From contig JAEXFI010000041.1 of NCBI GenBank assembly GCA_023400235.1, forward strand, positions 102,798 through 134,797: a DNA stretch of 32,000 nt. Reading direction: 5' to 3'. This DNA comes from Bacillota bacterium. Lineage in GTDB: Bacteria; Bacillota; Clostridia; Acetivibrionales; DSM-1351. The translations under genes were made by a program, and so were the position numbers. The notes beneath the pieces are model-generated. The model was not told where the DNA came from. It worked only from the letters and a program-made list of their open reading frames with translations, and made no database searches. Every line of letters begins with the position of its first letter. Position 1 is the first letter of the stretch. Below are positions 1,424-17,144 of the stretch, piece after piece.

Positions 1424-4045
1424 CTAGACACCTCTTTGCAGGTGTCCCCTGGTTATGCCCTTTTCCCTTATACTCTCAACTACTGCCTTTTCACTGCCTG
1501 ATAAGTTTTTTCCGCCTACGGTCAGACTTCTATACAAATTGACGGTATTACATATTTCCTCACTGCTCTCATCAACGAAACTCAATCTCATATACTCCAG
1601 GCCTGTTTTTCGGACATCAGCCATCAGCTCCGGAGCAAACAGGATTTGAGAATTGAATATGGTGCTCCTGCAATCAACACAGTCACACACCACCGGAAAT
1701 GCTGCATCCTTCCTATCCTTTATGTGGAACACCCCGCTTTTGCACACGCCCTTGCACTGATCAGGCGCTGCTCCGGCAACGCTTCCTCCAACTGGACAGT
1801 ACTCGCTGGTCATTACAGGTATCCTTCCATATACACCCAGCTCAGCCTCAAACTCAGGCGGATAATCCATGCTCTCCAACTGTCCCAGATTCAGCTCATA
1901 GGATAATGCGGCCCCGGTAAAGCCCTGGCTTTTGAGATAATATAGTGCAGAGCCGTTCAGCAGGTTAAGGGAATAGTCACCTGCAAGCTTTGTATTATCG
2001 CCCAGCAGCCTCCTCAGCCTTACGGCCGTTCCCATATTTCCCACCAGAAAGCCACTGACCATGCTGCTTACCTTCTCAATATTCCTGTCAATGCTTTCAG
2101 ACTGTCTGCCTTTTGTAATTGCGGAAATATATGCGAATATTTCTTTTTCAGGGCAGCTGTTTTTTATTTTTACAGCGTTATCCTGATTCAACAGCACGTT
2201 CAACGGAATGTACAACCTGTGAGCATTGATATTCCCAAAATCCAGGTCTTTGTTAAAGCCGTAGATCATTACCGAAAGCTTAATTTCTCTCTCATTCCGC
2301 AGATTATTCGGTTTTTTTGACATTCCGCCGCAATTGGCTGACAGGGATTCGCAGTTTCTGTTCCAGCCTGTCAATACCGCAGCTGAACTTTTTGGGCTAT
2401 CCTGACTATTTCCAGGAGCTTTCTGTATATTTCCCGGGAAATATGCAGGATTCTGCTGCAAGGGCTTCTGCCTTCTGAAGGCAGCCGTGCGCTTTTCTTC
2501 CAGCAGCTCCGCCGCCTTTCTTCTTATATTGTTCAGCTCGCTTATGGGCACGACTATATTGCTGTCCATATCCATATCCAACTGGGTTATTTTAAAGGGT
2601 GTAGCACCTGTTTTTGTAAGCTGTTCTGAAACCCGTTCCTGAGAAAGCGGCTTATTTAAAGCCTTTTCCGGGAAAAGCTCTCCCTGGGCCCTGACAGTAT
2701 TTCCTTCAGAATCCTCCAGAGTCAGCACCGGCAATTGGCCGGCCTTCATCTCAAAGCGGGCTTTTACCCCTGTCTTTCGTGTGGGTCTGGTATAAGTTTC
2801 AGCAGCCCGGTCAAGCATTTCCCGGTCTGAGGTTTTGTAAACCCTGCTGCCTCTTTGGATATTTCCCCTGATTACCGAAACCCATACAGTGTCTCCGGGA
2901 TTGGCGCGCTTGACCTGCTTTCCGCCATCCAGAACTATTTTTGTTATGATTCCTCCTGGGCTTTCCTCAAAGGCCTTTCCTGACCAGATCTCTATACCGT
3001 CACCATTTCCCAATGTGTTTTCCAGCTTTATTTTGACCGAGTCCGATTTTCTATCTCCTGCAAGTACTGTTCCCAAAAAGGTTCCCCAGTTCTTAGGTTT
3101 TTCAAAGGCCATCATTTCTGGCCCTGTCTTACCCATGAGATACCCCTTTGAAAAGCCTCCCCTGTTAAAGCTCTGGAGGAGCTGCTGCCTGTCCTCACCG
3201 GTTACCTGCCACGGGACGGAAGCAGAGTTGCCGCTACCCGTCCTTTGCTGTTCCAGCAGGTTCAGATACTTCCTGTAAATGCCCGTCACAGCTGCAACAT
3301 ATTCCGGACTTTTCATCCTGCCTTCTATTTTAAAGGAATTAACACCTGCCTCAAGCAACTCTCTCAGATGGTCAATATAGCATATATCCCTGGGACTCAG
3401 CAAATAACCGTTCTTTATATTCTTTCCGTCCCTGGCCGCTGAATAGTACATCCTGCAGGGTTGTGCGCACCTGCCCCGGTTTCCGCTCCTTCCGCCTATA
3501 AGGCTGCTCATGAGGCATTGCCCGGAATAGCTTATGCATAAGGCACCATGAATGAAAACTTCTGTATCAAGTCCGGTATTATTGCATATTTCACCTATTT
3601 CGTGAATGGACAGCTCTCTGGCCAGCACCGCTCTTTCAAAACCCATTCTTTCAAGTGCCCTTACTCCGTCAGTATCGTAGGTGGTCATCTGAGTGCTGGC
3701 ATGAATAGGAATATCAGGAATAAGACTTTTCAGGCATGCAGCCAACCCCAAATCCTGTAGTATGAACGCATCCACTCCCATTTCATATGACCTTGCCGCA
3801 TACTCTACCGCCTGCTGCATTTCATCTTCCAGAATCAGAGTATTCAGGGTGAGAAATACCTTCACCCCTCTTACATGTGCATAATCCAAAGCCTTGCGCA
3901 GGTCTTCCTCCTCAAAGTTTCCGGCAAACTGTCTGGCATTGAAAAGCTTTCCGCCCATATACACAGCATCTGCACCATTTTCCACTGCTGCCAGGAACGC
4001 ATCATAATTTCCCGCCGGTGCTAAAAGCTCTACTTTTTTTGTCAT
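1424..4045 (-). CDS. U32 family peptidase-like protein, long (873 aa) two-module form
   Basis: N-terminus MTKKVELLAPAGNYDAFLAAVENGADAVY and the U32 signature EVFIHGALCISYSGQCLMSSLIGGRSGNRGRCAQPCR. The C-terminal half has a second Cys-rich module. Overlaps the upstream gene by ATGA (4042-4045). Confidence 0.85.
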   Translation of the reverse strand: MTKKVELLAPAGNYDAFLAAVENGADAVYMGGKLFNARQFAGNFEEEDLRKALDYAHVRGVKVFLTLNTLILEDEMQQAVEYAARSYEMGVDAFILQDLGLAACLKSLIPDIPIHASTQMTTYDTDGVRALERMGFERAVLARELSIHEIGEICNNTGLDTEVFIHGALCISYSGQCLMSSLIGGRSGNRGRCAQPCRMYYSAARDGKNIKNGYLLSPRDICYIDHLRELLEAGVNSFKIEGRMKSPEYVAAVTGIYRKYLNLLEQQRTGSGNSASVPWQVTGEDRQQLLQSFNRGGFSKGYLMGKTGPEMMAFEKPKNWGTFLGTVLAGDRKSDSVKIKLENTLGNGDGIEIWSGKAFEESPGGIITKIVLDGGKQVKRANPGDTVWVSVIRGNIQRGSRVYKTSDREMLDRAAETYTRPTRKTGVKARFEMKAGQLPVLTLEDSEGNTVRAQGELFPEKALNKPLSQERVSEQLTKTGATPFKITQLDMDMDSNIVVPISELNNIRRKAAELLEEKRTAAFRRQKPLQQNPAYFPGNIQKAPGNSQDSPKSSAAVLTGWNRNCESLSANCGGMSKKPNNLRNEREIKLSVMIYGFNKDLDFGNINAHRLYIPLNVLLNQDNAVKIKNSCPEKEIFAYISAITKGRQSESIDRNIEKVSSMVSGFLVGNMGTAVRLRRLLGDNTKLAGDYSLNLLNGSALYYLKSQGFTGAALSYELNLGQLESMDYPPEFEAELGVYGRIPVMTSEYCPVGGSVAGAAPDQCKGVCKSGVFHIKDRKDAAFPVVCDCVDCRSTIFNSQILFAPELMADVRKTGLEYMRLSFVDESSEEICNTVNLYRSLTVGGKNLSGSEKAVVESIREKGITRGHLQRGV

Positions 4046-5080: not shown

Positions 5081-5518
5081 TTACATGTCGTACCCGCTCA
5101 AGGTCTTCTGGACTACCGGTCTGCTCCCCTTGTCAATGGAGTTTCTGACTTCTCCCAGTTCGGCTTCCCTTTTTGCCAAATCCAATTGGAGCTTGGTGTT
5201 TTTTGACATCAAACCGCCGTTTTCTTCCTTCAACTGGAGGTTTTCTTTTCTCAGCCTCTCCAGCTCTTCATTGATAGCTTCCTTTTCTTTTCTTAAAGCT
5301 GCTTCCTCTTCACGAGTTTTAAAAAAATCATCTGCTACATTTATAGCGGTAAGCACAGATGCAAAAGAAGTACTCAGCCTGTTGTTCCGCATAAGTATCT
5401 CATTCATTTTTCTATCGATATACAAACCGACTTTCTGGATATATTCGTCGGATTCTATTCCAACAAGCGTATAATCTTTACCGGCTATACGAATAACAAC
5501 CTTATTTTTTGAGGTCAA
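5081..5518 (-). CDS. zapA: Cell division protein ZapA
   Basis: N-terminal VVIRIAGKDYTLVGIESDEYIQKVGLYIDRKMNEI pattern plus a C-terminal coiled coil. TTG start at 5518 with AAGGAG upstream. Confidence 0.8.
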   Translation of the reverse strand: MTSKNKVVIRIAGKDYTLVGIESDEYIQKVGLYIDRKMNEILMRNNRLSTSFASVLTAINVADDFFKTREEEAALRKEKEAINEELERLRKENLQLKEENGGLMSKNTKLQLDLAKREAELGEVRNSIDKGSRPVVQKTLSGYDM

Positions 5519-6111: not shown

Positions 6112-7482
6112 TTACTTTAATTTTATTAATTTACCTGTTCTGGGATCTATAAGTATAATCCAATAGCCAAATGCGCCATATTTCGGCTTGTAGCCCTCAA
6201 GCTGTGCCCAGCTTCCCATGTTGCCAAACGGGTTTTCATCTATGCTGTACACTCCGGGAACTCCACACACAAACCTTTCTCTTCCGGAGTATTTATCGTA
6301 CCTTATACCGAATATGATATATCTGTATTTGTAATGTGCCAGCATTACCTTTGGGTTGAACAGAAGGTAGGTTTTCACGTTGTTTCTGAAAAGTATATTG
6401 TTCAGATATCCGGGGCTGTTGATCTTCCACCACTTAAACCTTTTGCTTCTGGCATTGAACGGGCTGCATACCTCAAAGCTCCTGTTCAGCTCCTCCTTAA
6501 GCATGTCTATATCCAGCTCATTTCTTGCAGCATCCCCTTCTGCAGTTATGGAGGATATTTCTCTGAAATTCCTTTCCGCATTGCTTATGATATCATTGTC
6601 AGCAGGCAAACCGTCTCTTTCTTCGTACATGCTTGAAAGCGTTGTATCAAATTTGCTGGTTATAAACTCATGACTGGTGTCCTCAAGCCCTTTACCGTCA
6701 GTGCCGGCATCTCCCGTATCCAAATCAGGCACTTTCTCCGACCGCAAACGGCCCTCCTCCTGATTACCCGTATTTGTATTTGTCTCATGAGCCGGGTTCT
6801 CAATTTGCTCCGGCTCCTTAAGGCTGTCCTGCCTTGAATCAGACAGGTTCCATAAATCAGTCCCGTCAAACTCCGTTGCCTCTTCTGCAAGTTCCTCCTC
6901 AAAGATCCTGTTAACCTGTATTTTCTCCAGGGCAGTATCTTCCAAACCCACCTCTGTTTCGGGAGCTTGCAGGTCAACCTTGCCGGACGCCTCCTCTGCT
7001 TCTGCCACAGCAGCTTCACTCCCGGGAAACTCCTGCCGAACTTCCCCGTCTGATTTCCTCATATATGCTTCAAACTCCTGCAGCCACTGTACCTGTCCGT
7101 TTCTGTATGCAACCAGCGGGCAAACAATTGAATTGAACTGATCATGTATTTCGGCTATCAGGGCAAACACATTTATATCCTCAAGCTTAAGCCCATTGCT
7201 GCCAATGGCGCCACTGTCAGCGTCCAGTCTGATATCCGCCCTTCCCCCACGGGTTTCGATTTCAGCTATGACGGTATGGTTCAACTTTTCACCCTTGGCA
7301 CTGATTCCGTAAATACGGTAATTAATACCCTGTCTGTCAGACATGTTGCTTAATGATATTTGCAGCTTTGCAGCCCGGCCGTTTATCTCAACCTTTATAT
7401 ATCCTGTTGGTCTGCCCAGATTATTTTCCATGTTCTGAAATATATAAAACAGTCTCTGATAATTATCACCCATGGCAAACAT
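6112..7482 (-). CDS. Hypothetical protein: N-terminal domain, ~180-aa acidic low-complexity linker, conserved-looking C-terminal domain
   Basis: Long ORF (456 aa) with AAGGAG upstream. Start could be ATG 7482 or 7473. I recognise no family. Confidence 0.7.
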   Translation of the reverse strand: MFAMGDNYQRLFYIFQNMENNLGRPTGYIKVEINGRAAKLQISLSNMSDRQGINYRIYGISAKGEKLNHTVIAEIETRGGRADIRLDADSGAIGSNGLKLEDINVFALIAEIHDQFNSIVCPLVAYRNGQVQWLQEFEAYMRKSDGEVRQEFPGSEAAVAEAEEASGKVDLQAPETEVGLEDTALEKIQVNRIFEEELAEEATEFDGTDLWNLSDSRQDSLKEPEQIENPAHETNTNTGNQEEGRLRSEKVPDLDTGDAGTDGKGLEDTSHEFITSKFDTTLSSMYEERDGLPADNDIISNAERNFREISSITAEGDAARNELDIDMLKEELNRSFEVCSPFNARSKRFKWWKINSPGYLNNILFRNNVKTYLLFNPKVMLAHYKYRYIIFGIRYDKYSGRERFVCGVPGVYSIDENPFGNMGSWAQLEGYKPKYGAFGYWIILIDPRTGKLIKLK

Positions 7483-7570: not shown

Positions 7571-8611
7571 TCAGAAATATACCGAGGTTATCTGATACCC
7601 ATTGCTGCTGTTCAGGTCAATGTACTCATTTTCCAGCCGTACAACAGGCCTTGTTATGCTGTGGCTGGGTATATATACAACCTCTCCGGTTTCCCGGCTG
7701 TTCAGTACTGCCTTGGCCCCCACATAGCAGGGGATTATCCGTTCAATAAAGGTAGTCGCCACATCCCTGTCAAATTGCCCCATCCCGTCGGTTATAAACA
7801 TTTCAAAAGCCTCAAAGGGCGTATGCTTTTTGCCATATACCCTTTCGGAGGTCATGGCGTCATATACATCTGCAACAGCTAAAATCTTAGCACCCAGCTG
7901 GATACTTTCTCCTGAATATCCCATGGGATATCCCGAACCGTCTTCTCTCTCGTGATGCATCAATACGGCTTGCTTTACACTGTCATGAAGTTCTGTGGCA
8001 CCCTCAAGCATGTTGAAACCATACATGCTGTGCTTTTTTATTTTTTCAAACTCCTCCGGCAGCAGCCTGCCTTTTTTATTCAGTATTTCCTTTGGTATCC
8101 GAAGCTTTCCGATATCGTGCAGAAGACCTGCCTTGATTATATTTTCCATTTCAGAGGAGGAGAAATTCATCCATTTTCCTGCCAAGGAGGAATAATATGC
8201 AACATTCAGGCTATGACAGTAGGTATATTCATCAAATTTTCTGATGGCAGACAGGCAGCCGATAATATACCTGTTTTCTCTTACCTCTTGCCCAATCCAT
8301 GCCGCAAGACGGTCAAGCCTTGTATTGTCAAGCCTGCTGCTGGAGATGACTTCTCTTATGAGTTCCTTGGCTTCAAGCACCTTATCCCTGTATTGTTTTT
8401 CAAAGCCTTTAAGCGCTTTTCTCACCTCGCTCAGTGCCTCTGGTTTAAATACTCTCAAGCGCTGTATCCCGTATTCATGAAGCCGGTCTATAATGTACCT
8501 GTTCAGCGTGGTATAAGCAGCTACAATCAGCGCCCCATGGCTGTTATATATATCTTCTGCCAAAACATGGCCCTCTCCGGTATGAATCAAATCAATTGAT
8601 ATTATGCTCAT
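7571..8611 (-). CDS. HD-GYP domain protein (putative c-di-GMP phosphodiesterase)
   Basis: HDIGKLRIP ... HHEREDGSGYPMG motifs. Confidence 0.85.
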   Translation of the reverse strand: MSIISIDLIHTGEGHVLAEDIYNSHGALIVAAYTTLNRYIIDRLHEYGIQRLRVFKPEALSEVRKALKGFEKQYRDKVLEAKELIREVISSSRLDNTRLDRLAAWIGQEVRENRYIIGCLSAIRKFDEYTYCHSLNVAYYSSLAGKWMNFSSSEMENIIKAGLLHDIGKLRIPKEILNKKGRLLPEEFEKIKKHSMYGFNMLEGATELHDSVKQAVLMHHEREDGSGYPMGYSGESIQLGAKILAVADVYDAMTSERVYGKKHTPFEAFEMFITDGMGQFDRDVATTFIERIIPCYVGAKAVLNSRETGEVVYIPSHSITRPVVRLENEYIDLNSSNGYQITSVYF

Positions 8612-8695
8612 GTCCTGTCCCTTTCAACATCAAATTATCTGCAAAATTCCTGTTTGTCAGGATATATGTGCAATTGCCGGATACCTCCGCAGCAG

Positions 8696-9508
8696 CTATT
8701 TCTTGTATACTGCCGGCATGACACACCTGTACCCCGACTCCTCCCTGCTAATAGATTCGGAGTGCCCTATAAAAAGAAAACCACCCTCCTCAGTGCTTTC
8801 ATAAAACTTATTTATCAATTTGCGCTTTGTTTCAGCGTCAAAATATATCATTACATTCCTGCAAAAAATAACATGAAATTTTCTTCGGAACGGAAATTGC
8901 TCCGTCATAAGATTAAATCTCCGAAAGATGACTTCCTTGCTGATTCTGTCACATATCTTGTAGTTTTCATCAGGTTGAGCTGTGAAATACCTTTTTTTCC
9001 ACTTCTCCGGCACTGCGGATAAGTCTTCTTTTGAATACCTTCCCTCCACCGCTTTGTTTAAAGCTTTAGTTGATATATCCGTGGCCAGTATCCTTGTATC
9101 CCACTCCAGCTTTGAAGGGCCAAAATGATCATCCAGCAGCATAGCAAGGGTGTAAGGCTCCTGGCCTGTCGAACACCCCGCGCTCCAGATGCCCATATCC
9201 TTTTTTTTGGTGCATACCCGTTCAAGATAAGGCAGTACATTATTTCTGAAATAATCAAAGTGCTGGTTTTCTCTCATAAAATATGTATGATTCGTGGTCA
9301 GCCTGTCAATCATGGCTACAGCAGCCTGTCCGGTCTTATCGGAGATTATGTGGTTCATATAATCAGTAAAGCTGGCATAGTTGTTATCGGAGAGATAATT
9401 TACCAACCTTCCGGCTACCAGTGATTTTTTTTGGGTCAGATTCACACCATAGTTATCCTTAACATAGTTTACCAGATCAGTAAACTCCTTTTGCGTAATT
9501 TGCCTCAT
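8696..9508 (-). CDS. cheR: Chemotaxis protein methyltransferase CheR
   Basis: CheR N-terminal helical domain and a SAM-binding region (IWSAGCSTGQEPY, FCRNVMIYFD). Confidence 0.9.
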   Translation of the reverse strand: MRQITQKEFTDLVNYVKDNYGVNLTQKKSLVAGRLVNYLSDNNYASFTDYMNHIISDKTGQAAVAMIDRLTTNHTYFMRENQHFDYFRNNVLPYLERVCTKKKDMGIWSAGCSTGQEPYTLAMLLDDHFGPSKLEWDTRILATDISTKALNKAVEGRYSKEDLSAVPEKWKKRYFTAQPDENYKICDRISKEVIFRRFNLMTEQFPFRRKFHVIFCRNVMIYFDAETKRKLINKFYESTEEGGFLFIGHSESISREESGYRCVMPAVYKK

Positions 9509-9587
9509 ATTTTACCTCTCAAGCCGGGTGGCACGTGAATAAAGTGCCGAAGAGTACGGAACTCCTCGACACCTTATCATTAAGCCT

Positions 9588-11423
9588 CTAGTATTTTCCG
9601 TAGTCCTTGTCATCCAGTGATATTTTCAGCTTTGAGGCTGCGGCCTCCTCATGGACACCTGAAAACTCCTTGTTTTTTCTCTTATCAATCATTCCCTCAA
9701 TTATTTTGAGCATTTCAGGTGTAAGAGTCTCATTAGAGGTATAGGACGTCTTAACCTTTTTCAATCTGAATCTTGATACTGATTCCTTAAGCATATCTGC
9801 CTGTCCTGATAATTCCTCACTGGCTGCGGCACATTCCTCGGCAGTTGCAGAATTGGTCTGTACAACCTGGGCAACCTGTTCAATGGCCGTATTGATCTGG
9901 GATATACCTGTGGCCTGCTCATTTGATGCCGCTGCAATATCTCCAACCAGAGCTGCCGCCTTGGACACTCCACCCACTATCTCATCCAGGGCTGCTGCCG
10001 TATCGTTTGCAATTCTTGTACCGACCTCAACCTTCTTGATGGAGCCCTCTATCATCTCAGTGGTCTCCTTAGCCGCATTGGCACTTCTTGCAGCAAGATT
10101 TCTTACCTCCTCAGCCACCACTGCAAAGCCTTTTCCGTGCTGCCCCGCCCTTGCAGCTTCTACTGCAGCATTTAAGGCAAGTATGTTTGTCTGGAAGGCG
10201 ATTTCGTCAATTACCTTTATTATTTTGGATATATTTGAGGAGGATTCATTAATCTCCGCCATAGCCTTAACCATTTCCTGCATTTGTGAATTTCCTTTAG
10301 CGGCATTCTCTTTTGCCGATATGGCAAGCTCATTGGCCAGACTTGCATTCTGGGCATTCTGTCTGGTTTGAGCGGCAACCTGTGTCATTGAAGATGTTAT
10401 TTCCTCGACTGAGCTTGCCTGCTCAGTTGAGCCCTGAGACAGCATCTGGCTGGATGAGGACACCTGTCTTGCTCCAAGTGCCACCTGTTCGGATGCAAGG
10501 TTTATATTTCCCAATACTTCATTATTTGTTTCAATCATTTCACTGAGTTTTTTACCCAGCAGGTCCTTATCCGACCTGACCTTGACGTCAATGGTCAGAT
10601 CTCCCGACGCCATTCTCTCAACAATGACAGCCTGTCCCCTGATATTTTCCACCATTTTGGAGAAAGAGAGCATAAGTGTGCCTATTTCATCTTTAGATTC
10701 AGCTTGGACATTTACTTCCACATCTCCGATTGCGAGCCTGTCTGCTGCCTCAACCAGCTTTTTGACAGGATTGCTTATAATCCTGGATATGAACAGGCCA
10801 AGTCCCACAGCCAGAACCATTCCCACTGCAATAAATGCAATCATCATGACAGTGGCCGTCTGGGCTGCGCTGTCGTTGCTCTTTGACTTATTGCTGGCGT
10901 CGTCCACCTTTAGCTTGAACAGATTGTCAAAGTGAGCCTGTATGTTTTTATTCAGCTCATCCCCTTTTGTTTTCGTAAGCTGATGGGCTTCAGCGCTCTT
11001 GTTGGACAATGCCAGGTCTGTAACCTGTTTGGTGTAAGGCAGGAAGTCTTCATCCACTGTTTTGACCAGCGCATTGTATTCCGAGCTGACCTGGCTGCTG
11101 ATAATGTTTTTGCCGAAGTTGTCCAGTGCAGCTTGCATTTCCTCCAGGAAATCATTGATTTTTGTCATATTTTCATTCATGGATTGAGCATCTGTATTGA
11201 TTATAATGTTTAGCATGTTCAGCCTTGCTCTTTGATATTTCTCATTTGCCGTAGCCAGATCGGTAATCGGAACAGTATTTATTTCATACAATTCCGTGTC
11301 GGCATCATTAATGTTAGCAATATTTATAATGCCTACCACTCCCACAATACCCGCTATCAATGCAACAACAATGAACCCCGCAATCAGCTTTGCTGCGATT
11401 TTCATATTTTTAAACCAACTCAT
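9588..11423 (-). CDS. Methyl-accepting chemotaxis protein (N-terminal TM, periplasmic sensor, HAMP, signalling domain)
   Basis: Highly conserved hairpin region [43 protein letters not shown]. Confidence 0.9.
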
Positions 11424-11510
11424 AAAAAGCCCCCTGTCCAGATAATTTTTCTGAAAATTTTTCTGCTATGCCGTTAATTTTAGTATCTTTAGTTAATGAA
11501 TTGCAGCGGA

Positions 11511-12014
11511 TCAGGCCTGTGCAAGGCTGCTCAGCATTTCCGTCTCATCTGTGCTGAAAATTTTGCCGCAGTCCAAAAGCAGCTTTACTTCACTTCCTAT
11601 TTTGCCTATTCCTTTGACATATTTGTTGTTAAAGCCGGTTTTTGCATCCGGCGGCAGCATAATGTTCTCATCGTCTATGGATACCACCTCGCATACCGTG
11701 TCAACGATCATACCAATGGAGGTGTCATTTATGTCTATGACAATAATACACGTCCTGTCGGTATATTGCAGCGGTTCCTTTCTGAACCTTAGTCTCACAT
11801 CCATTACAGGTATTATTTTCCCCCTCAGGTTGATAATTCCTTTAAGATAATCCGGCAGTTCCGGCACCTGTGTTATGGGCTGTATTCCAATAATTTCGGT
11901 AACATATTTGATTTCTATGCCGTAATCTTCTCCTCCCAGTGTAAATGTCAAAAATCTTCCCTTTTGCGTATCCTCGTTTTGAATCTCAAAGTTATCCTCC
12001 AATACCGAAGCCAT
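11511..12014 (-). CDS. cheW: Chemotaxis coupling protein CheW
   Basis: FLTFTLGGEDYGIEIKYVTEIIG ... INLRGKIIPVMDVR, typical CheW fold. Confidence 0.9.
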   Translation of the reverse strand: MASVLEDNFEIQNEDTQKGRFLTFTLGGEDYGIEIKYVTEIIGIQPITQVPELPDYLKGIINLRGKIIPVMDVRLRFRKEPLQYTDRTCIIVIDINDTSIGMIVDTVCEVVSIDDENIMLPPDAKTGFNNKYVKGIGKIGSEVKLLLDCGKIFSTDETEMLSSLAQA

Positions 12015-12026
12015 GGCGCTCTCCTT

Positions 12027-14054
12027 TCATCGTTTATTATTTATTAGGCTTGCTATATCAATTATCAGGCTTATACTGCCGTCACCCAATAACGTACATC
12101 CAGAAATACCCTGCACCTTTTTCAAATATTGAGGCAGTGCCTTTACAACCACCTGTTGCTCTCCTATGAGCTTGTCAACAAAAATGCATACACCTTCGTT
12201 TTCACTTTCAACCAGGATCAAAATCCCCTCCTCCAGTCTGTCTGTTCCCGGGAGGATATTAAAATGTCTATGTAACCTTATGATGGGGCGGCACTGCCCC
12301 CGGATCATGATCATCTCATTATTTTCCGGATCTTTTATGACATCAGCTTGTGTGATATTGAGAGATTCCCGTATGGACGCTATAGGAATAGTATAGGTGG
12401 CATTGCCCACTCTAACCGTCATGCCGTCCATAATTGCCAGTGTCAGGGGGATTTTCATGGAGATGGTTGTACCTCCCCCCGGCTTGCTGTCAATCAGCAC
12501 TCCGCCGTTAACCTTGTCCATATCCTTGAGCACCACATCCATTCCAACTCCGCGCCCTGAAAATTCTGTAACTTCCTCTTTAGTGGAAAATCCAGGCAAT
12601 AGAATGATGGAATATATCTCCCTGTCTGACATTTCACTGACTGGCCGCTGTAAAAGCTTGCACTCTGCGGCTTTCTGAATTATCCTTTCTTTGTCCAGCC
12701 CTCTTCCGTCATCCTTCAGAATAATCCAGACATCTCCTCCTGAATGCTTTGCTTCCAGCGTTATCCTGCCTGCCTCCTCCTTGCCCTTTAACACTCGTTC
12801 CTCAGCCGATTCAATTCCATGATCTATGGCATTTCGAATCAAATGAATCAAAGGGTCGGAAATATGCTCAATTATATTTTTATCTACCTCGGTTTCTTCC
12901 CCGATTATTTCAAAGTTGATTCCCTTGTCCAGCTTCCTGGACATATCCCTGACAATTCTGTTCATTTTTTGGAAGGTCATGGACAGGGGCACCATCCTCA
13001 TGGACATGACAATGTCCTGAAGCTCTCCCGTTATTTTTTTCAAATGCCGGGCGGCCTTCCGGAAACCTTCCAGTTCAAGGCCTTTGAGCTCAGGATTTTG
13101 AGTGACCATTGACTCTGATATGACCAGCTCTCCCACTACGTCCATCAATTTATTCATTTTTTGAATATTTACACTTATGAAATTTTGCTTTGAAAGGTTT
13201 GACATTTTACTGTCTGAGAAGTTATTCTCCTCACCGCTCTGAAGTTTACAGGATTCCCGGGGTTCACAGCCATCTGCGCCGGCAGCTGCAGCATTGTCCG
13301 CTTCCGTAAGAGTCTCACTCCTGCCTTCTTCTGATGCAGCCCCAGTCCTGCTTTCAATAGTCAGCTCCTTAAGGAACATGGTCTCTTCCAGAAGCTGCCT
13401 CACTTCACTTTCAGGCTGAGTACTGTCAAACATCACAGTCAGGCCACTTTCCTGAATTTTTTTGTTACAGCTTTCAGTATCTGAAATGTCCTCCGGAATA
13501 TGGCAGATATTCATTGCCACGTGCGCAAGTGCATGAATAACCGAAAATGCTCTGAGATTCTCCATCTGGCAATCTTCCTCAAAGATTATTTTCGCCATGT
13601 AGGAATAATTCTTAGCCACTGTCTCTTCAGTCCTGAAACCACCCAGCTTCAACTGATTTAAAAATTCTGCAAGTGTCCGGGTGATACTTGTGGGGTCTCC
13701 ATCGGCCCCCGACTTGTTCTTTATCTTGTTTACCTCACTGCATACAAAATCTATGACCTTCAGCATCAGGTCCGTCAGTTGCAGGTAGTCAGCCTTGTCA
13801 GGTTTCTTCTCCCTGAGATAATAGAATACATCTTCAACAGAATGCGCCAAGGTGGATATATTGTTAAAGCTCATCATTGCCGAAGAGCCCTTTAAGGTGT
13901 GCATAATCCTGAAAATTTCGTTTATGTTGCTCTCAAGCCCGTTTTTCTTTTCACTGTATAAAATTATTTGTTCAAGTTCCTCAATGAGTTGAACAGTTTC
14001 AAAAACAAACATGTCCTGCATTGGTTCAGTATTGATGAAGTCCAAGTTAGCCAC
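12027..14054 (-). CDS. cheA: Chemotaxis histidine kinase CheA
   Basis: Hpt box MHTLKGSSAMM, HATPase motifs HLIRNAIDHGIE, DDGRGLD and GRGVGMDVV, and a C-terminal CheW-like domain. Confidence 0.9.
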   Translation of the reverse strand: MANLDFINTEPMQDMFVFETVQLIEELEQIILYSEKKNGLESNINEIFRIMHTLKGSSAMMSFNNISTLAHSVEDVFYYLREKKPDKADYLQLTDLMLKVIDFVCSEVNKIKNKSGADGDPTSITRTLAEFLNQLKLGGFRTEETVAKNYSYMAKIIFEEDCQMENLRAFSVIHALAHVAMNICHIPEDISDTESCNKKIQESGLTVMFDSTQPESEVRQLLEETMFLKELTIESRTGAASEEGRSETLTEADNAAAAGADGCEPRESCKLQSGEENNFSDSKMSNLSKQNFISVNIQKMNKLMDVVGELVISESMVTQNPELKGLELEGFRKAARHLKKITGELQDIVMSMRMVPLSMTFQKMNRIVRDMSRKLDKGINFEIIGEETEVDKNIIEHISDPLIHLIRNAIDHGIESAEERVLKGKEEAGRITLEAKHSGGDVWIILKDDGRGLDKERIIQKAAECKLLQRPVSEMSDREIYSIILLPGFSTKEEVTEFSGRGVGMDVVLKDMDKVNGGVLIDSKPGGGTTISMKIPLTLAIMDGMTVRVGNATYTIPIASIRESLNITQADVIKDPENNEMIMIRGQCRPIIRLHRHFNILPGTDRLEEGILILVESENEGVCIFVDKLIGEQQVVVKALPQYLKKVQGISGCTLLGDGSISLIIDIASLINNKR

Positions 14055-14093
14055 CTCGTATTTTTGTTAGTCAGCAATTTTCGACATTTTTCT

Positions 14094-14477
14094 CTATGCC
14101 TGTCCACCGGCTTCACTTTTATATTTTCCAAGTGCCTTGATTATGCTCTCTTCCTTGAAAGGCTTTACAATAAATCCTGAGGCTCCCACCATTATTGCCT
14201 CCCTTATGTGGCTTTCCTGACCCAGAGCAGATATCATGACTATCTTGCTGCCGGGGTTGATTTCCTTTATTGCCTTGACAGCCTCGATACCGTCTACTTC
14301 CGGCATGGTAATATCCATTGTCACAAGGTCCGGTGTCAGTTCTTTGTATTTCTGTATGGCTATCCTTCCATTTTCGGCCTCTCCTACTACTGTGAAGCCG
14401 TTTTTCTCCAGTATTAATTTCAAAGCCTGTCTCATAAAAATTGCATCATCTACAACCAGAACTTTAGACATAAGCAT
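14094..14477 (-). CDS. cheY: Chemotaxis response regulator CheY (single REC domain)
   Basis: VLVVDDAIFMR ... DLVTMDITMPEVDG ... ALGQ ... FIVKPF. AAGGA 6 nt upstream of ATG 14477. Confidence 0.9.
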   Translation of the reverse strand: MLMSKVLVVDDAIFMRQALKLILEKNGFTVVGEAENGRIAIQKYKELTPDLVTMDITMPEVDGIEAVKAIKEINPGSKIVMISALGQESHIREAIMVGASGFIVKPFKEESIIKALGKYKSEAGGQA

Positions 14478-14535
14478 GCACCATCCTTATAGTAAAAATA
14501 AAGTATCTAGAATATATTTACATAATCCAATTATT

Positions 14536-14567
14536 TAATGTAACAATATTATTATTATGTTACATTA
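14536..14567. repeat. Left recombinase core-type site: 10-bp arm / 12-bp AT spacer / inverted 10-bp arm
   Basis: TAATGTAACA-ATATTATTATTA-TGTTACATTA. The arms are a perfect 10-bp inverted repeat. The reverse complement matches the right site 29/32 by my count. Confidence 0.7.
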
Positions 14568-14669
14568 TTTTTTTCTCATAAGTGCACAATATAACTGCCA
14601 TGTGGCCATATGTATTTTTCAAAACCTTAAAAAAATTTAAATTATAAATGTATTAAAACCTTAAATATA

Positions 14670-14678
14670 TGCTATAAT
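14670..14678 (+). promoter_or_regulatory. Extended -10 promoter (TGcTATAAT) for the recombinase gene
   Basis: TGCTATAAT at 14670-14678, about 80 nt upstream of ATG 14759, which is preceded by GGAGG at 14746-14750. No good -35, as is common for extended -10 promoters. Confidence 0.45.
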
Positions 14679-14758
14679 AGTTTCATTAATTTCAATTACA
14701 TTAATTTACAATTATTGATAAAATTTTACAAAGAATTGCAAACTCGGAGGAAGTTACC

Positions 14759-15319
14759 ATGACAGTTGAACCCATACGAAATAAGACAAAAATTAAGCAG
14801 ATTTATTATTTTTTAAATGGTAAAGACCCCAAATACGGACTGCTATTTAAATTTGGATTGAACACGGGTTTGAGAATAAGCGATATTCTGTCGGTAAGAG
14901 TGAAAGATATTCTGAATGAAAAAGGTGAGTATCGTGATTATCTGACCTTAAAGGAAATGAAAACCGGGAAAGAGAAAAAAATCAAATTAAACGATTCCCT
15001 TCGTAAAAACATCAATTCTTATATAAAAATTTCCAAATTAAAGTATGATGCATACTTGTTTTCCAGTCAAAAAGGCGGATATATAGGCAGAGTACAAGCT
15101 TATAGGGTTTTAAAGGAAGCGGCGGTCTTCTGTAATGTGGAAAATTTCGGAACCCATAGTCTGAGAAAAACCTGGGGCTATTGGACTTATAACATGTCAA
15201 AATATAATGTTGGTTTGATAATGGATACCTTCAATCATAGTTCTCAAAGTATTACCCTCAGGTATATAGGTATTAACCAGGACCAGAAGGATGAGCTGTA
15301 TTCCTTGGTCCAGTTTTAA
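14759..15319 (+). CDS. Minimal tyrosine site-specific recombinase (catalytic domain only, 186 aa)
   Basis: Catalytic residues appear in order: R (NTGLRISD), K (KTGKEKKIKL), HxxR (THSLRKTWG), H (FNHSS) and Y (ITLRYIG). Only about 25 aa precede the catalytic domain. Confidence 0.85.
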   Translation: MTVEPIRNKTKIKQIYYFLNGKDPKYGLLFKFGLNTGLRISDILSVRVKDILNEKGEYRDYLTLKEMKTGKEKKIKLNDSLRKNINSYIKISKLKYDAYLFSSQKGGYIGRVQAYRVLKEAAVFCNVENFGTHSLRKTWGYWTYNMSKYNVGLIMDTFNHSSQSITLRYIGINQDQKDELYSLVQF

Positions 15320-15393
15320 CCTTTTTTGGATTAGCGCTTAAATATAGGTATAGAATTTGGTAAAATTATGTTGTATAATGACAAATAAGATGT

Positions 15394-15425
15394 TAATGTA
15401 ACATAATAATAAAATTGATACGTTA
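15394..15425. repeat. Right recombinase core-type site (inverted relative to the left site)
   Basis: TAATGTAACA-TAATAATAAAAT-TGATACGTTA. The second arm matches TGTTACATTA 8/10. The spacer matches the reverse complement of the left spacer at 11/12. Confidence 0.65.
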
Positions 15426-15436
15426 ATATTTTCCTC

Positions 15437-15494
15437 AAAAAAATAAAAGTGCCAATTATGCTTCATACATGCATAACTGTCACTTTTTTTATTT
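15437..15494. terminator. Bidirectional rho-independent terminator (rsmA on minus; recombinase and outward promoter on plus)
   Basis: 13-bp stem GTGCCAATTATGC / GCATAACTGTCAC (one mismatch, one wobble) with a 9-nt loop. Flanked by an A-run (15437-15448) and a T-run (15484-15490). Confidence 0.65.
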
Positions 15495-15500
15495 TGCGTT

Positions 15501-16358
15501 TTACATTGACAACAGGTTTGACAGCTCTCCAAACTGTTGTACCGAAAGTACTTCCCCTCTTATATTTTCCTTAAGCCCCATACTTTCGAGAATTTTTTTC
15601 AACTGCTCCTTATCCCTCTGAAGAAAGCCTGCATTTGAGAGTCCGTTTACAAGAGTCTTCCTCCGCTGTCCAAAGGATGCCTTTACAAGCCTGAAATACA
15701 GATTTTTGTCCTTTACCTGTACGGAGGGCTCTTCTAGTATATCCAGCCGTATTATTGTGGAATGTACTTCTGGCTGAGGAATAAAGCAATGTGGCGGAAC
15801 ATCAAATATTATGTCAGGGCTGGAATAAAACTGAACCGCCACGGACAACGCTCCGTAATCCTTTGTACCCGGTCCTGCAACCATCCTTTGAGCAACCTCC
15901 CTTTGCACCATGAAAACCATTCCCTGTACACCCTTTACTTCCTCCAGGAATCTCATAATTATGGGAGTAGTAATATAATACGGAAGATTTGCAACTACCT
16001 TCACAGCCTTTGTGCCGAACTTCTGTCCATACTCTGCTATAATAGCACCAATATCCGCTTTCATAACGTCGTTGTTTATTAGCTCTATATTTGAATACTC
16101 GCTCAAATTGTCGCGAAGAGCAGGTATGAGATGCTTATCTATCTCTATGGCTGCAACTCCTCTAGCTCTATTTGCCAGTTCTTTTGTCATACTGCCTATA
16201 CCCGGCCCAATCTCCAAAACCAGAGTATCCTTGTCAAGGCCTGCTGCGTCTACTATTTTCCTTACTACGCTATCGTCATTTAAAAAGTTCTGACCAAGAG
16301 ACTTGGTCAACCTGAGGTTATGCTTTTTTATTACATCCAGTGTATTGTTTCTGCTCAT
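15501..16358 (-). CDS. rsmA: 16S rRNA (adenine1518/1519-N6)-dimethyltransferase RsmA/KsgA
   Basis: LGQNFLNDDSVVRKIV, LEIGPGIGSMT and ANLPYYITTPI motifs. Start trimmed from GTG 16385 to ATG 16358 (MSRNNTLDV), because the extra MRSGGMEII residues derive from the repeat element. Confidence 0.9.
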   Translation of the reverse strand: MSRNNTLDVIKKHNLRLTKSLGQNFLNDDSVVRKIVDAAGLDKDTLVLEIGPGIGSMTKELANRARGVAAIEIDKHLIPALRDNLSEYSNIELINNDVMKADIGAIIAEYGQKFGTKAVKVVANLPYYITTPIIMRFLEEVKGVQGMVFMVQREVAQRMVAGPGTKDYGALSVAVQFYSSPDIIFDVPPHCFIPQPEVHSTIIRLDILEEPSVQVKDKNLYFRLVKASFGQRRKTLVNGLSNAGFLQRDKEQLKKILESMGLKENIRGEVLSVQQFGELSNLLSM

Positions 16359-16464
16359 TATTATTTCCATGCCCCCACTTCGCACAAAACTCCATGAAAG
16401 TCACGGCATGGAATCGGTGCCACATTTTTATCTGCTTCAAAATTTCTTTCAGCCTTTATCCTTC
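16359..16464 (-). repeat. Leader repeat, copy 1 (abuts the rsmA start codon)
   Basis: About 100 nt, near-identical to 21472-21577 and 31745-31848. Gene-sense core AGAAAUUUUGAAGCAGAUAAAAAUGUGGCACCGAUUCCAUGCCGUGACUUUCAUGGAGUUUUGUGCGAAGUGGGGGCAUGGAAAUAAUA immediately followed by AUG. Confidence 0.9.
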
Positions 16465-16520
16465 AAATAATTGATATTAATATTATTATATCTCATATAC
16501 ATGTTATTTGAAGGCCATTT

Positions 16521-17144
16521 TTATATTTTTCTGTATAATCGGTCAAAGGGATGAAATAATTCCAAAGTAAAATCAATTGCTTTAAATACAACGATGTATG
16601 CTATCAAGGAATAAATGGTATTTTCCCACCCAAATATAAAACCGGCTGCAACGACAATAACCAGATTCAGCAATATAAAATACTTGCTTGGGGAATAGTC
16701 TTTATTTATAAACCTTCCAGCTATCCTCCTGTGCTCTATGCCATCCAGGAAGCCTCCGTATTTAAGAATCAATCCCGACCCTACTCCAAGCAATATACCT
16801 CCCAGAATGGTAGACTGCAGTATGTCATAAGTTTCCCAGTTATCCGAATTTATAGCGGAAATCCAATAAATAAGTGATGTCAATGCAAATATTATGGTTA
16901 TTAGCTTCTGCTTTCCCCTGCGAAAATACTCAATGAGTATAAACGGGAAATTCAAAATAAAGATAATTGCACCCAAAGGTATCTCACTGATATAGCTCAA
17001 TACCACAGAAACCCCTATCAGCCCTCCACCGATGAGATTATGCGCTTTAAAGAATACCTCAAGACCTACGGCGGTCATAATTGACCCCACAAGAACAAAA
17101 ATGTATTTAATAATAACATAAGGAAGCATTCTTTTAAATTCCAT
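16521..17144 (-). CDS. YitT/YczE-like integral membrane protein (membrane domain only)
   Basis: Polytopic hydrophobic protein with G-rich helices (GLEVFFKAHNLIGGGLIG; GGILLGVGSGLILKYGG). Start trimmed to ATG 17144 (GGAGG 7 nt upstream). Confidence 0.6.
   Translation of the reverse strand: MEFKRMLPYVIIKYIFVLVGSIMTAVGLEVFFKAHNLIGGGLIGVSVVLSYISEIPLGAIIFILNFPFILIEYFRRGKQKLITIIFALTSLIYWISAINSDNWETYDILQSTILGGILLGVGSGLILKYGGFLDGIEHRRIAGRFINKDYSPSKYFILLNLVIVVAAGFIFGWENTIYSLIAYIVVFKAIDFTLELFHPFDRLYRKI

Follow-up and report, generated by a model that had tools for sequence, protein, structure and literature searches.

In Escherichia coli, a small tyrosine recombinase (FimB or FimE, about 190-200 aa) inverts the short promoter segment fimS between its inverted repeats and so sets the adjacent operon. 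In the H segment of Salmonella, the gene for the recombinase Hin is located inside the inverted segment, together with an outward promoter from which the adjacent genes are driven in only one of the two orientations. The RecV-dependent switches of Clostridioides difficile (cwpV, flgB, pdcB/pdcC and cmrRST) are tyrosine-recombinase inversions, which include motility and cyclic di-GMP (c-di-GMP) phosphodiesterase genes (PMC5903667, PMC9286219). Here we analysed a 32,000-nt stretch of DNA (the window; contig JAEXFI010000041.1, positions 102,798 to 134,797, assembly GCA_023400235.1) from a Bacillota bacterium of the Clostridia (Acetivibrionales, DSM-1351). The window contains a cassette in which two inverted sites enclose the gene for a 186-aa tyrosine recombinase, next to the 5' end of a chemotaxis (che) operon. 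We suggest that this is probably an autonomous invertible promoter cassette, a phase-variation switch with its recombinase built in.

The original prediction, made from the window sequence, knew of no described switch at a che operon. This has to be corrected, as Sekulovic et al. (2018, PLoS Genet, PMC5903667) detected read-mapping signatures of inversion beside genes for chemotaxis and c-di-GMP signalling in a number of Clostridia, which they regarded as undescribed; the cassette itself is not described there. The loci of that survey include a methyl-accepting chemotaxis protein (MCP) gene in Anaerotignum propionicum, an HD-type phosphodiesterase gene in Desulfitobacterium dehalogenans, chemotaxis genes at two loci in C. 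thermocellum DSM 1313 and a c-di-GMP gene in Halobacteroides halobius (PMC5903667). According to the same paper, the 844-bp fimbrial switch of Providencia stuartii encloses a recombinase open reading frame (ORF), and the topology of the cassette therefore has a precedent.

Recombination sites and recombinase of the window

The two sites read exactly as predicted in their 32-bp versions (14536-14567 and 15394-15425), and our recount agrees with the 19-bp perfect inverted repeat and the 29/32 inverted match; the direct-orientation match comes to 23/32, not 22/32. The top inverted pair in a repeat search of the window (33 nt, 91% complementary, 826 nt apart) corresponds to these two sites. The pattern TAATGTAACA-N12-TGTTACATTA, allowing up to three mismatches, has two matches in the 32 kb, both being the sites, with 0 expected from 100 shuffles, and a 28-bp site model run over the window detected two strong sites only, left and right. 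The two sites are real and non-random. The 10-12-10 architecture proposed originally was revised: with 121 related site pairs as comparison, the functional unit appears to be 28 bp long with an 11-6-11 layout, two arms around a 6-nt centre (Table 1).

The only ORF between the sites is the recombinase gene, as predicted. The protein consists of the catalytic domain alone, lacking the N-terminal core-binding domain; its sole Pfam match is PF00589 (73.3 bits against a gathering cut-off of 27.1), leaving no resolvase-type serine domain of the kind found in the serine invertases Hin, Gin and Cin. Residues R39, H133, R136, H160 and Y169 are invariant across 20 homologues, and so are several lysines between residues 68 and 76, K68 and K71 included. 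In the alignment to XerH, the nearest solved relative (E = 1.6e-4), the invariant residues fall on the catalytic motifs. Judged by its sequence, the protein is a member of the tyrosine recombinase superfamily with intact catalytic residues. NCBIfam cut-offs place it outside the FimB/FimE, Xer and integron integrase families: the FimB/FimE-type invertase models NF007371 and NF007370 gave 28.5 and 21.4 bits, below their cut-offs of 222 and 221, and the Xer models also remained below cut-off (XerA 51 vs 220, XerD 38 vs 330, XerC 30 vs 335).

We found 2871 homologues of the recombinase in the database, nearly all of 186 aa and 73-99% identical, from many clostridial genera. One 90%-identity cluster (protein P0121) spans Acetivibrio, Thermoclostridium stercorarium and Calorimonas. 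Conservation of this degree between genera is uncommon and may reflect horizontal spread or strong constraint.

Related cassettes and covariation of the site centres

We examined 159 related loci of the recombinase gene, 79 from species-representative genomes and 80 from metagenomes. The same inverted site pair brackets the recombinase gene in 143 of them (73/79 genome and 70/80 metagenome loci; 144 with the window), and the predicted position of the recombinase inside the invertible segment is the layout of these relatives also. The left site usually precedes the ATG by 130-200 nt and the right site follows the stop codon by 50-200 nt, and the size of the element across the family is about 860-1000 bp. 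The position-frequency table of the 121 non-redundant site pairs gives the consensus ATGyAACAwwwT, four variable bases, AwwwTGTTrCAT. The arms are conserved family-wide, imperfect outer or inner arms being common; the 6-nt centre varies, with 54 distinct left centres among the 121 pairs.

The two centres of a locus covary. In 117 of the 121 pairs the left centre, reverse-complemented, equals the right centre, compared with 2.2% in between-locus comparisons; centres identical in direct orientation (0/121) and palindromic centres were not found among these pairs. This covariation is as expected from the requirement for homology in the overlap region. Since the centres match in inverted and never in direct orientation, the outcome is fixed as inversion, which agrees with the predicted inversion over excision, as do the four flipped loci described below. 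Some genomes have 2-4 copies of the cassette (L030, L059, L080 and L093 in one metagenome-assembled genome, MAG), and paralogous cassettes with different centres, for instance TAGCAA, TAGTTA, TGTCTA and TGCTCA, were detected in one MAG. Having different centres, such paralogous cassettes would not recombine with each other. Among lox sites, the different centres of lox511 or lox2272 keep them from cross-reacting with loxP.

The divergent cheY-cheA arrangement at the cassette is present in L019-L029 and in many more distant loci. The order cheY, cassette, ksgA is kept across Ruminiclostridium species, the flanks diverging in parallel (at 93% recombinase identity CheY is 87%, KsgA 84% and CheA 72% identical). 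Ruminiclostridium hungatei DSM 14427 and R. cellobioparum have cassettes 96% and 93-94% identical to the one in the window. This conserved synteny bears on the alternative that the cassette is a small mobile element, IS-like or integrative, with the inverted repeats as its ends and an incidental position at che; a larger mobile element had been named as an alternative in the original prediction. An element of this kind would account for the cassette at many different loci, its 2-4 copies in some genomes and the 90%-identical recombinases in Acetivibrio, Thermoclostridium and Calorimonas, but not for a synteny kept while the flanks co-diverge, nor for centres that differ between copies within one genome. 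The neighbours are non-random (about 52/58 signalling or motility genes, see below), no identical copies were seen at unrelated loci, and the site architecture, with its asymmetric inverted centre, points to inversion and not to excision or transposition. The features expected of an insertion sequence were thus not found, and we consider a mobile element hardly credible here.

Orientation of the cassette in related loci

For the comparison of flanks, all loci were set with the recombinase gene on the plus strand. In four loci (L065, L073, L109 and L170) the cassette has the opposite orientation to that in relatives with matching flanks, and the breakpoints are at the sites. In L073 (Anaerotaenia torta) both flanks are swapped compared with L084, L069, L074, L144, L060 and L086, and the flank match (85.6% over 174 nt, vs L084, L069, L074 and L144) abuts the site. 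Both flanks are swapped in L170 also (vs L169, L069 and L084), the alignment with L169 abutting the site on one side. The target-side flank alone was matched for L065 (78% over about 600 nt, vs L053, L064 and L135) and for L109 (vs five other loci). In L096, judged by gene position only, an HD-GYP gene is found on the right, on the plus strand. L070 was considered as a che-linked flipped case and left unused as ambiguous, a TetR gene being located between the cassette and the downstream plus-strand cheY-cheA.

Additional evidence is provided by assemblies that break at the sites. The repeats are too short to break assemblies alone, so that breaks at the sites indicate both orientations mixed in the sequenced DNA. 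L017, from a 93%-identical relative of the cassette of the window, is an 862-bp contig whose ends form an 18-nt perfect inverted repeat. L097, from a Clostridium aceticum isolate assembly, is a stand-alone 902-bp contig representing the cassette alone. Logan contigs L098 and L099 from Caloranaerobacter azorensis reads span site to site, and the NCBI contig of that strain (L068) terminates precisely at the outer boundary of the left site. In L033 ([Clostridium] ultunense DSM 10521) the scaffold has gaps adjoining both sites, and the contig of L182 ends within both centres with a perfect terminal repeat of only 7 nt. The site-to-site contig of L183 (1036 bp) was not counted, as its 30-nt perfect terminal repeat would by itself break a k = 31 graph, k = 31 being the value used for the Logan assembly. 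For many homologues, the only known contigs measure 860-1240 bp, approximately the cassette size, which suggests widespread assembly fragmentation at the switches; the median contig of the collection is also about 1 kb, and for this reason we counted only contigs with checked ends.

A further trace was found in L143 and L146, which are 99.5% identical to L147: the left and right sites have the centre variants TGCTCA and TGCCCA the other way round, and L147 has one extra A in the left site. These swapped variants are consistent with the footprint of a past exchange within the centre, maybe of recombination across a mismatched centre. For the family, both orientations occur in nature, with the breakpoints at the sites.

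Target genes and outward promoters

In about 60 of 73 loci, the gene beside the left site is divergent, with its 5' end facing the site. Pfam matches assign about 52 of 58 such neighbours to chemotaxis, motility or c-di-GMP signalling (an approximate sum, as the families may overlap within a protein). The Pfam families of the left neighbours are HD_5 (HD-GYP, 14 loci), Response_reg (CheY, 13), MCPsignal (8), the CheW domain (8, of them 6 CheA), FapA (5) and EAL (4), EAL/GGDEF proteins being among the signalling classes. The right-hand neighbours are heterogeneous and represent unrelated housekeeping genes (KsgA, RecR, an exonuclease, Pirin, ABC ATPases and others).

Most of the 73 genome loci read have an outward promoter-like element, in the direction of the recombinase gene, close to the inner edge of the right site. 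In the HD-GYP-linked loci it has the consensus sigma-A form TTGACA-17-TATAAAAT. In many che- or MCP-linked loci it is sigma-H-like, RnAGGAwww-11-GTCGAATAA, presumably fitting the Bacillus sigma-H consensus. The Ruminiclostridium group has GTAGAA-N17-TATAAT, and the corresponding element of the window, P_out, is TAGAAT-17-TATAAT, directed out of the cassette through the right site. In flipped loci such as L073, the target operon comes directly after the outward element.

Between the left site and the HD-GYP gene of L069 we found a c-di-GMP-I riboswitch (Rfam RF01051, 41.8 bits; 2727-2806, minus strand). It starts 27 nt from the left site, which leaves no room for a promoter in the flank, so that the HD-GYP promoter must be at or beyond the site. 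The HD-GYP target of L069 would then be under the control of DNA inversion plus c-di-GMP. A flank promoter by the left site of HD-GYP loci (TTGAAT-17-GATAAA) was considered and appears doubtful, as it would overlap the riboswitch start in L069.

Right outside the right site, a stretch of about 45 nt (TTCATGGTTTARTTTACCAAAAAAATTTCCTTTGTTTCCCAT) is conserved among HD-GYP-linked cassettes of different families, and a conserved terminator hairpin comes after it. The stretch has no conserved ORF on either strand; it may serve the recombinase as an accessory site or encode a short RNA, transcribed from the outward promoter when the cassette is in its common orientation. A small ORF starting from the right-site ATG, or encoded on the opposite strand of the right flank, was rejected, as the frames are interrupted (L069, L073, L037 and L060) where the nucleotides are conserved. 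By eye, a small Spo0E-like ORF (…ISQRLDVLIVEYM…) is present between the site and the HD-GYP gene in L073 (about 3350-3520, plus strand) and in the left flank of L084. A group II intron domain match near the flipped cassette of L073 (RF00029, 45.3 bits; 5361-5436, minus strand) is probably unrelated to it.

Proposed mechanism of the switch

In the proposed mechanism, the recombinase would be expressed from its own promoter inside the cassette and would bind the symmetric arms of the two 28-bp sites. Strand exchange would take place across the identical, oppositely oriented 6-nt centres (TTATTA and TAATAA), and the segment of about 0.86 kb, from about 14549 to 15412, would flip. In the orientation of the window, transcription from P_out and read-through from the recombinase gene would run into the terminator that precedes ksgA, and che would be OFF or basal. 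After inversion, P_out would be placed about 100 nt upstream of cheY, reading through the 28-bp site and the 60-nt leader, and would drive cheY-cheA-cheW-mcp-cheR-HD-GYP (che-ON). The original proposal that the cassette gates a chemosensory operon is supported at the family level by the left neighbours and the outward element; a single orientation was found in the species of the window and its close relatives, and switching at its own locus is inferred, not seen.

Several observations weigh against this mechanism. No flipped orientation was found in the species of the window or in its 93-99% relatives: the search for the exact protein and its 99% and 93% relatives covered 42 contigs, and in all 17 places shown the recombinase gene is divergent from cheY. 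Places with identical neighbours were collapsed in this comparison, so that a minority orientation could be hidden. About 90% of the assemblies are in the orientation called OFF, which is unexpected unless switching is strongly biased or this orientation also permits expression. The right outer arm of the window has two mismatches (TGATACGT vs the consensus TGTTACAT), by which the switch could be weakened or locked; the degenerate arm is also present in L018 and L019, from 96-99% identical relatives. In a generic scan of 14400-15560, 10 promoter-like hits were obtained vs 7.2 expected, zero terminators were found and P_out was not listed. The generic scan was uninformative, and the promoter was therefore judged from conservation across loci; the outward element is a candidate promoter by its conserved position.

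The single orientation seen throughout the contigs shown for this species and close relatives, and the mismatches of the right outer arm, would be expected if the family inverts and the copy in the window is a relic, locked by these two mismatches into a fixed intergenic insert with the recombinase expressed or silent. Such a relic is quite improbable, given that the recombinase is intact and, at 96-99%, more conserved than its neighbours and that the 6-nt centres of the window are still perfectly matched. L017, whose outer arm has one mismatch, shows the contig-break signature, and imperfect arms are frequent in the family; this 862-bp contig is the only evidence for switching that comes from a close relative of the window.

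The prevalence of one orientation can also be read in terms of polarity. The assembled orientation might itself express che, through a leftward promoter located either within the 190 nt that precede the recombinase gene or at a position overlapping the left site. Inversion would then silence che or swap it to a differently regulated promoter, e.g. a stationary-phase promoter of the sigma-H type, a promoter exchange and not an ON/OFF switch. The predominance of the assembled orientation in many species makes more sense if this orientation is more than a plain OFF state, and the promoter class tracks the target (sigma-A at HD-GYP, sigma-H-like at che genes), suggesting condition-specific control. 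We nevertheless regard this polarity as unlikely: no conserved leftward promoter was found at the left inner end across the loci, several loci have a flank of only 27-60 nt between the left site and the target, and the conserved promoter-like element always points the other way. The preferred reading remains that of a switch which would turn che ON when P_out is brought to face cheY.

Other features of the window

The coordinates are given in Table 1. The predicted extended -10 element of the recombinase's own promoter is present on the plus strand, and 'atgcTATAAT' is kept at the same position in L018-L025 and L031-L034; its promoter function is plausible from this conservation. Arm-like half-sites surround this promoter. 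Many relatives have ATGTAACA in the spacer that separates -35 from -10, and ATTACAT immediately ahead of the ribosome-binding site. The half-sites might, quite speculatively, represent an autoregulatory operator. Half-sites bracket the recombinase promoter in most loci, which may reflect autorepression or a third binding site.

The terminator hairpin between the right site and ksgA has a predicted RNA fold of -16.6 kcal/mol (z = -5.05; 0 of 200 shuffles fold as well). No significant RNA structure was detected from the recombinase stop codon to the right site (z = -0.15), so that a terminator is present beyond the right site and none before it, and an Rfam scan of window positions 13000-17000 gave no match. 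The predicted run of cheY, cheA, cheW, mcp, cheR and HD-GYP genes was recovered by Pfam matches on the minus strand. The 5' end of cheY (ATG at 14477) is 60 nt from the 28-bp left site, or 58 nt from its 32-bp version. A 456-aa ORF (6112-7482, minus strand), which comes immediately after the HD-GYP gene and has the same direction, had no Pfam match at E <= 1e-5. The right-hand neighbour ksgA converges on the cassette and is regarded as a bystander.

Table 1. Coordinates of the cassette, its neighbours and selected features of related loci
Feature	Sequence	Position	Strand	Remarks
Left recombination site	window	14538-14565 (28 bp)	none	ATGTAACAATA-TTATTA-TTATGTTACAT; 14/14 on the site model
Left site, outer arm	window	14538-14548
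Left site, asymmetric centre	window	14549-14554		TTATTA
Left site, inner arm	window	14555-14565
Right recombination site	window	15396-15423 (28 bp)	none	ATGTAACATAA-TAATAA-AATTGATACGT
Right site, centre	window	15407-15412		TAATAA, reverse complement of the left centre TTATTA
Tyrosine recombinase gene (186 aa)	window	14759-15319	+	PF00589, E = 2.7e-20, residues 11-173
Predicted extended -10 of the recombinase promoter	window	14670-14678	+	TGCTATAAT; within the cassette
Arm-like half-sites around the recombinase promoter	window	14648-14701	+	ATGTATTA 14648-14655; GTTTCAT 14680-14686; AATTACAT 14694-14701
Outward promoter-like element P_out	window	15351-15379	+	TAGAAT-17 nt-TATAAT; ends 16 nt before the right site
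Bidirectional intrinsic terminator, right site to ksgA	window	15444-15497	none	hairpin with A-run and T-run on its flanks
Presumed regulated operon, cheY to HD_5/HD-GYP gene	window	7571-14477	-	Pfam matches
cheY	window	14094-14477	-
cheA	window	12027-14054	-
cheW	window	11511-12014	-
mcp	window	9588-11423	-
cheR	window	8696-9508	-
HD_5/HD-GYP gene	window	7571-8611	-
ksgA/rsmA (16S rRNA dimethyladenosine transferase)	window	15501-16385	-	PF00398, E = 2.6e-67
Left site	L143, L146, L147	about 2229-2257
Right site	L143, L146, L147	about 3168-3195
Conserved stretch of about 45 nt with the terminator hairpin after it	L069	3690-3880		also in the right flanks of L074, L084 and L060 and the left flank of L073

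Discussion

The cassette is probably a real invertible promoter switch of a known type, with a built-in recombinase, and its family is barely described. We lean, by a small measure, towards a broader view, in which the Clostridia hold a large and essentially uncharacterised family of autonomous 'plug-in' phase-variation modules. Each module of about 0.9 kb would have a minimal 186-aa recombinase, its own and possibly autoregulated promoter, an outward promoter of the sigma-A or sigma-H type and two 28-bp sites with family-wide arms and a 4-6-nt centre private to the locus. A genome could then have several orthogonal switches, each toggling a chemotaxis operon or the gene for an MCP, FapA or a c-di-GMP enzyme.

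If this is true, heterogeneity in chemotaxis, motility and c-di-GMP signalling would be hard-wired by DNA inversion in many environmental and gut Clostridia, among them the cellulolytic Ruminiclostridium and Acetivibrio, Desulfitobacterium, Sedimentibacter and Clostridium sensu stricto. Each target gene would have a dedicated switch, compared with the design of one recombinase and many switches in C. difficile. The assembly breaks at these loci and the stand-alone 0.9-kb 'integrase' contigs would be explained as well. A natural set of very small recombinases whose sites have common arms and differing centres would also interest builders of orthogonal genetic memory devices. At 860-1000 bp, this element exceeds the size window that common inverton finders use by default, which may be why the cassette was overlooked.

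No description of the cassette, its sites or its distribution was found in full-text literature searches beyond the 2018 survey (PMC5903667). The target classes of the survey loci are the same as those of the cassette family and the genera are partly the same, but these loci are given as locus tags only, and an embedded recombinase, the site architecture and the family are not described for them. The C. thermocellum loci of the survey may be this cassette, because Acetivibrio thermocellus supplies a partial member of the recombinase 90% cluster.

The sites of the cassette resemble those of XerCD/dif and Cre/lox. The dif site is also 28 bp long, with two inverted arms and a 6-nt centre, and identity of the partner centres appears to be required. 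Unlike XerCD, the enzyme of the cassette is of one subunit type, is much smaller and has no N-terminal core-binding domain, and the outcome is inversion, not dimer resolution.

The RecV switches are the clostridial counterpart, being tyrosine-recombinase inversions at motility and c-di-GMP phosphodiesterase genes. Compared by layout, they consist of several switches of about 150-300 bp served by one unlinked recombinase, whereas each cassette has an embedded recombinase and a private centre. The comparison with fimS differs in two respects: FimB and FimE are encoded outside the 314-bp fimS, whereas the recombinase gene is inside the element of about 0.86 kb here, and the target of fimS is fimbriae and that of the cassette a chemosensory operon. 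Hin, in turn, is a serine recombinase that needs Fis and an enhancer, whereas the enzyme of the cassette is a tyrosine recombinase with dif/lox-like core sites. By analogy with these systems, the cassette would combine the logic of fimS, a tyrosine invertase acting on an invertible promoter, with the topology of Hin, the gene for the enzyme being inside the segment.

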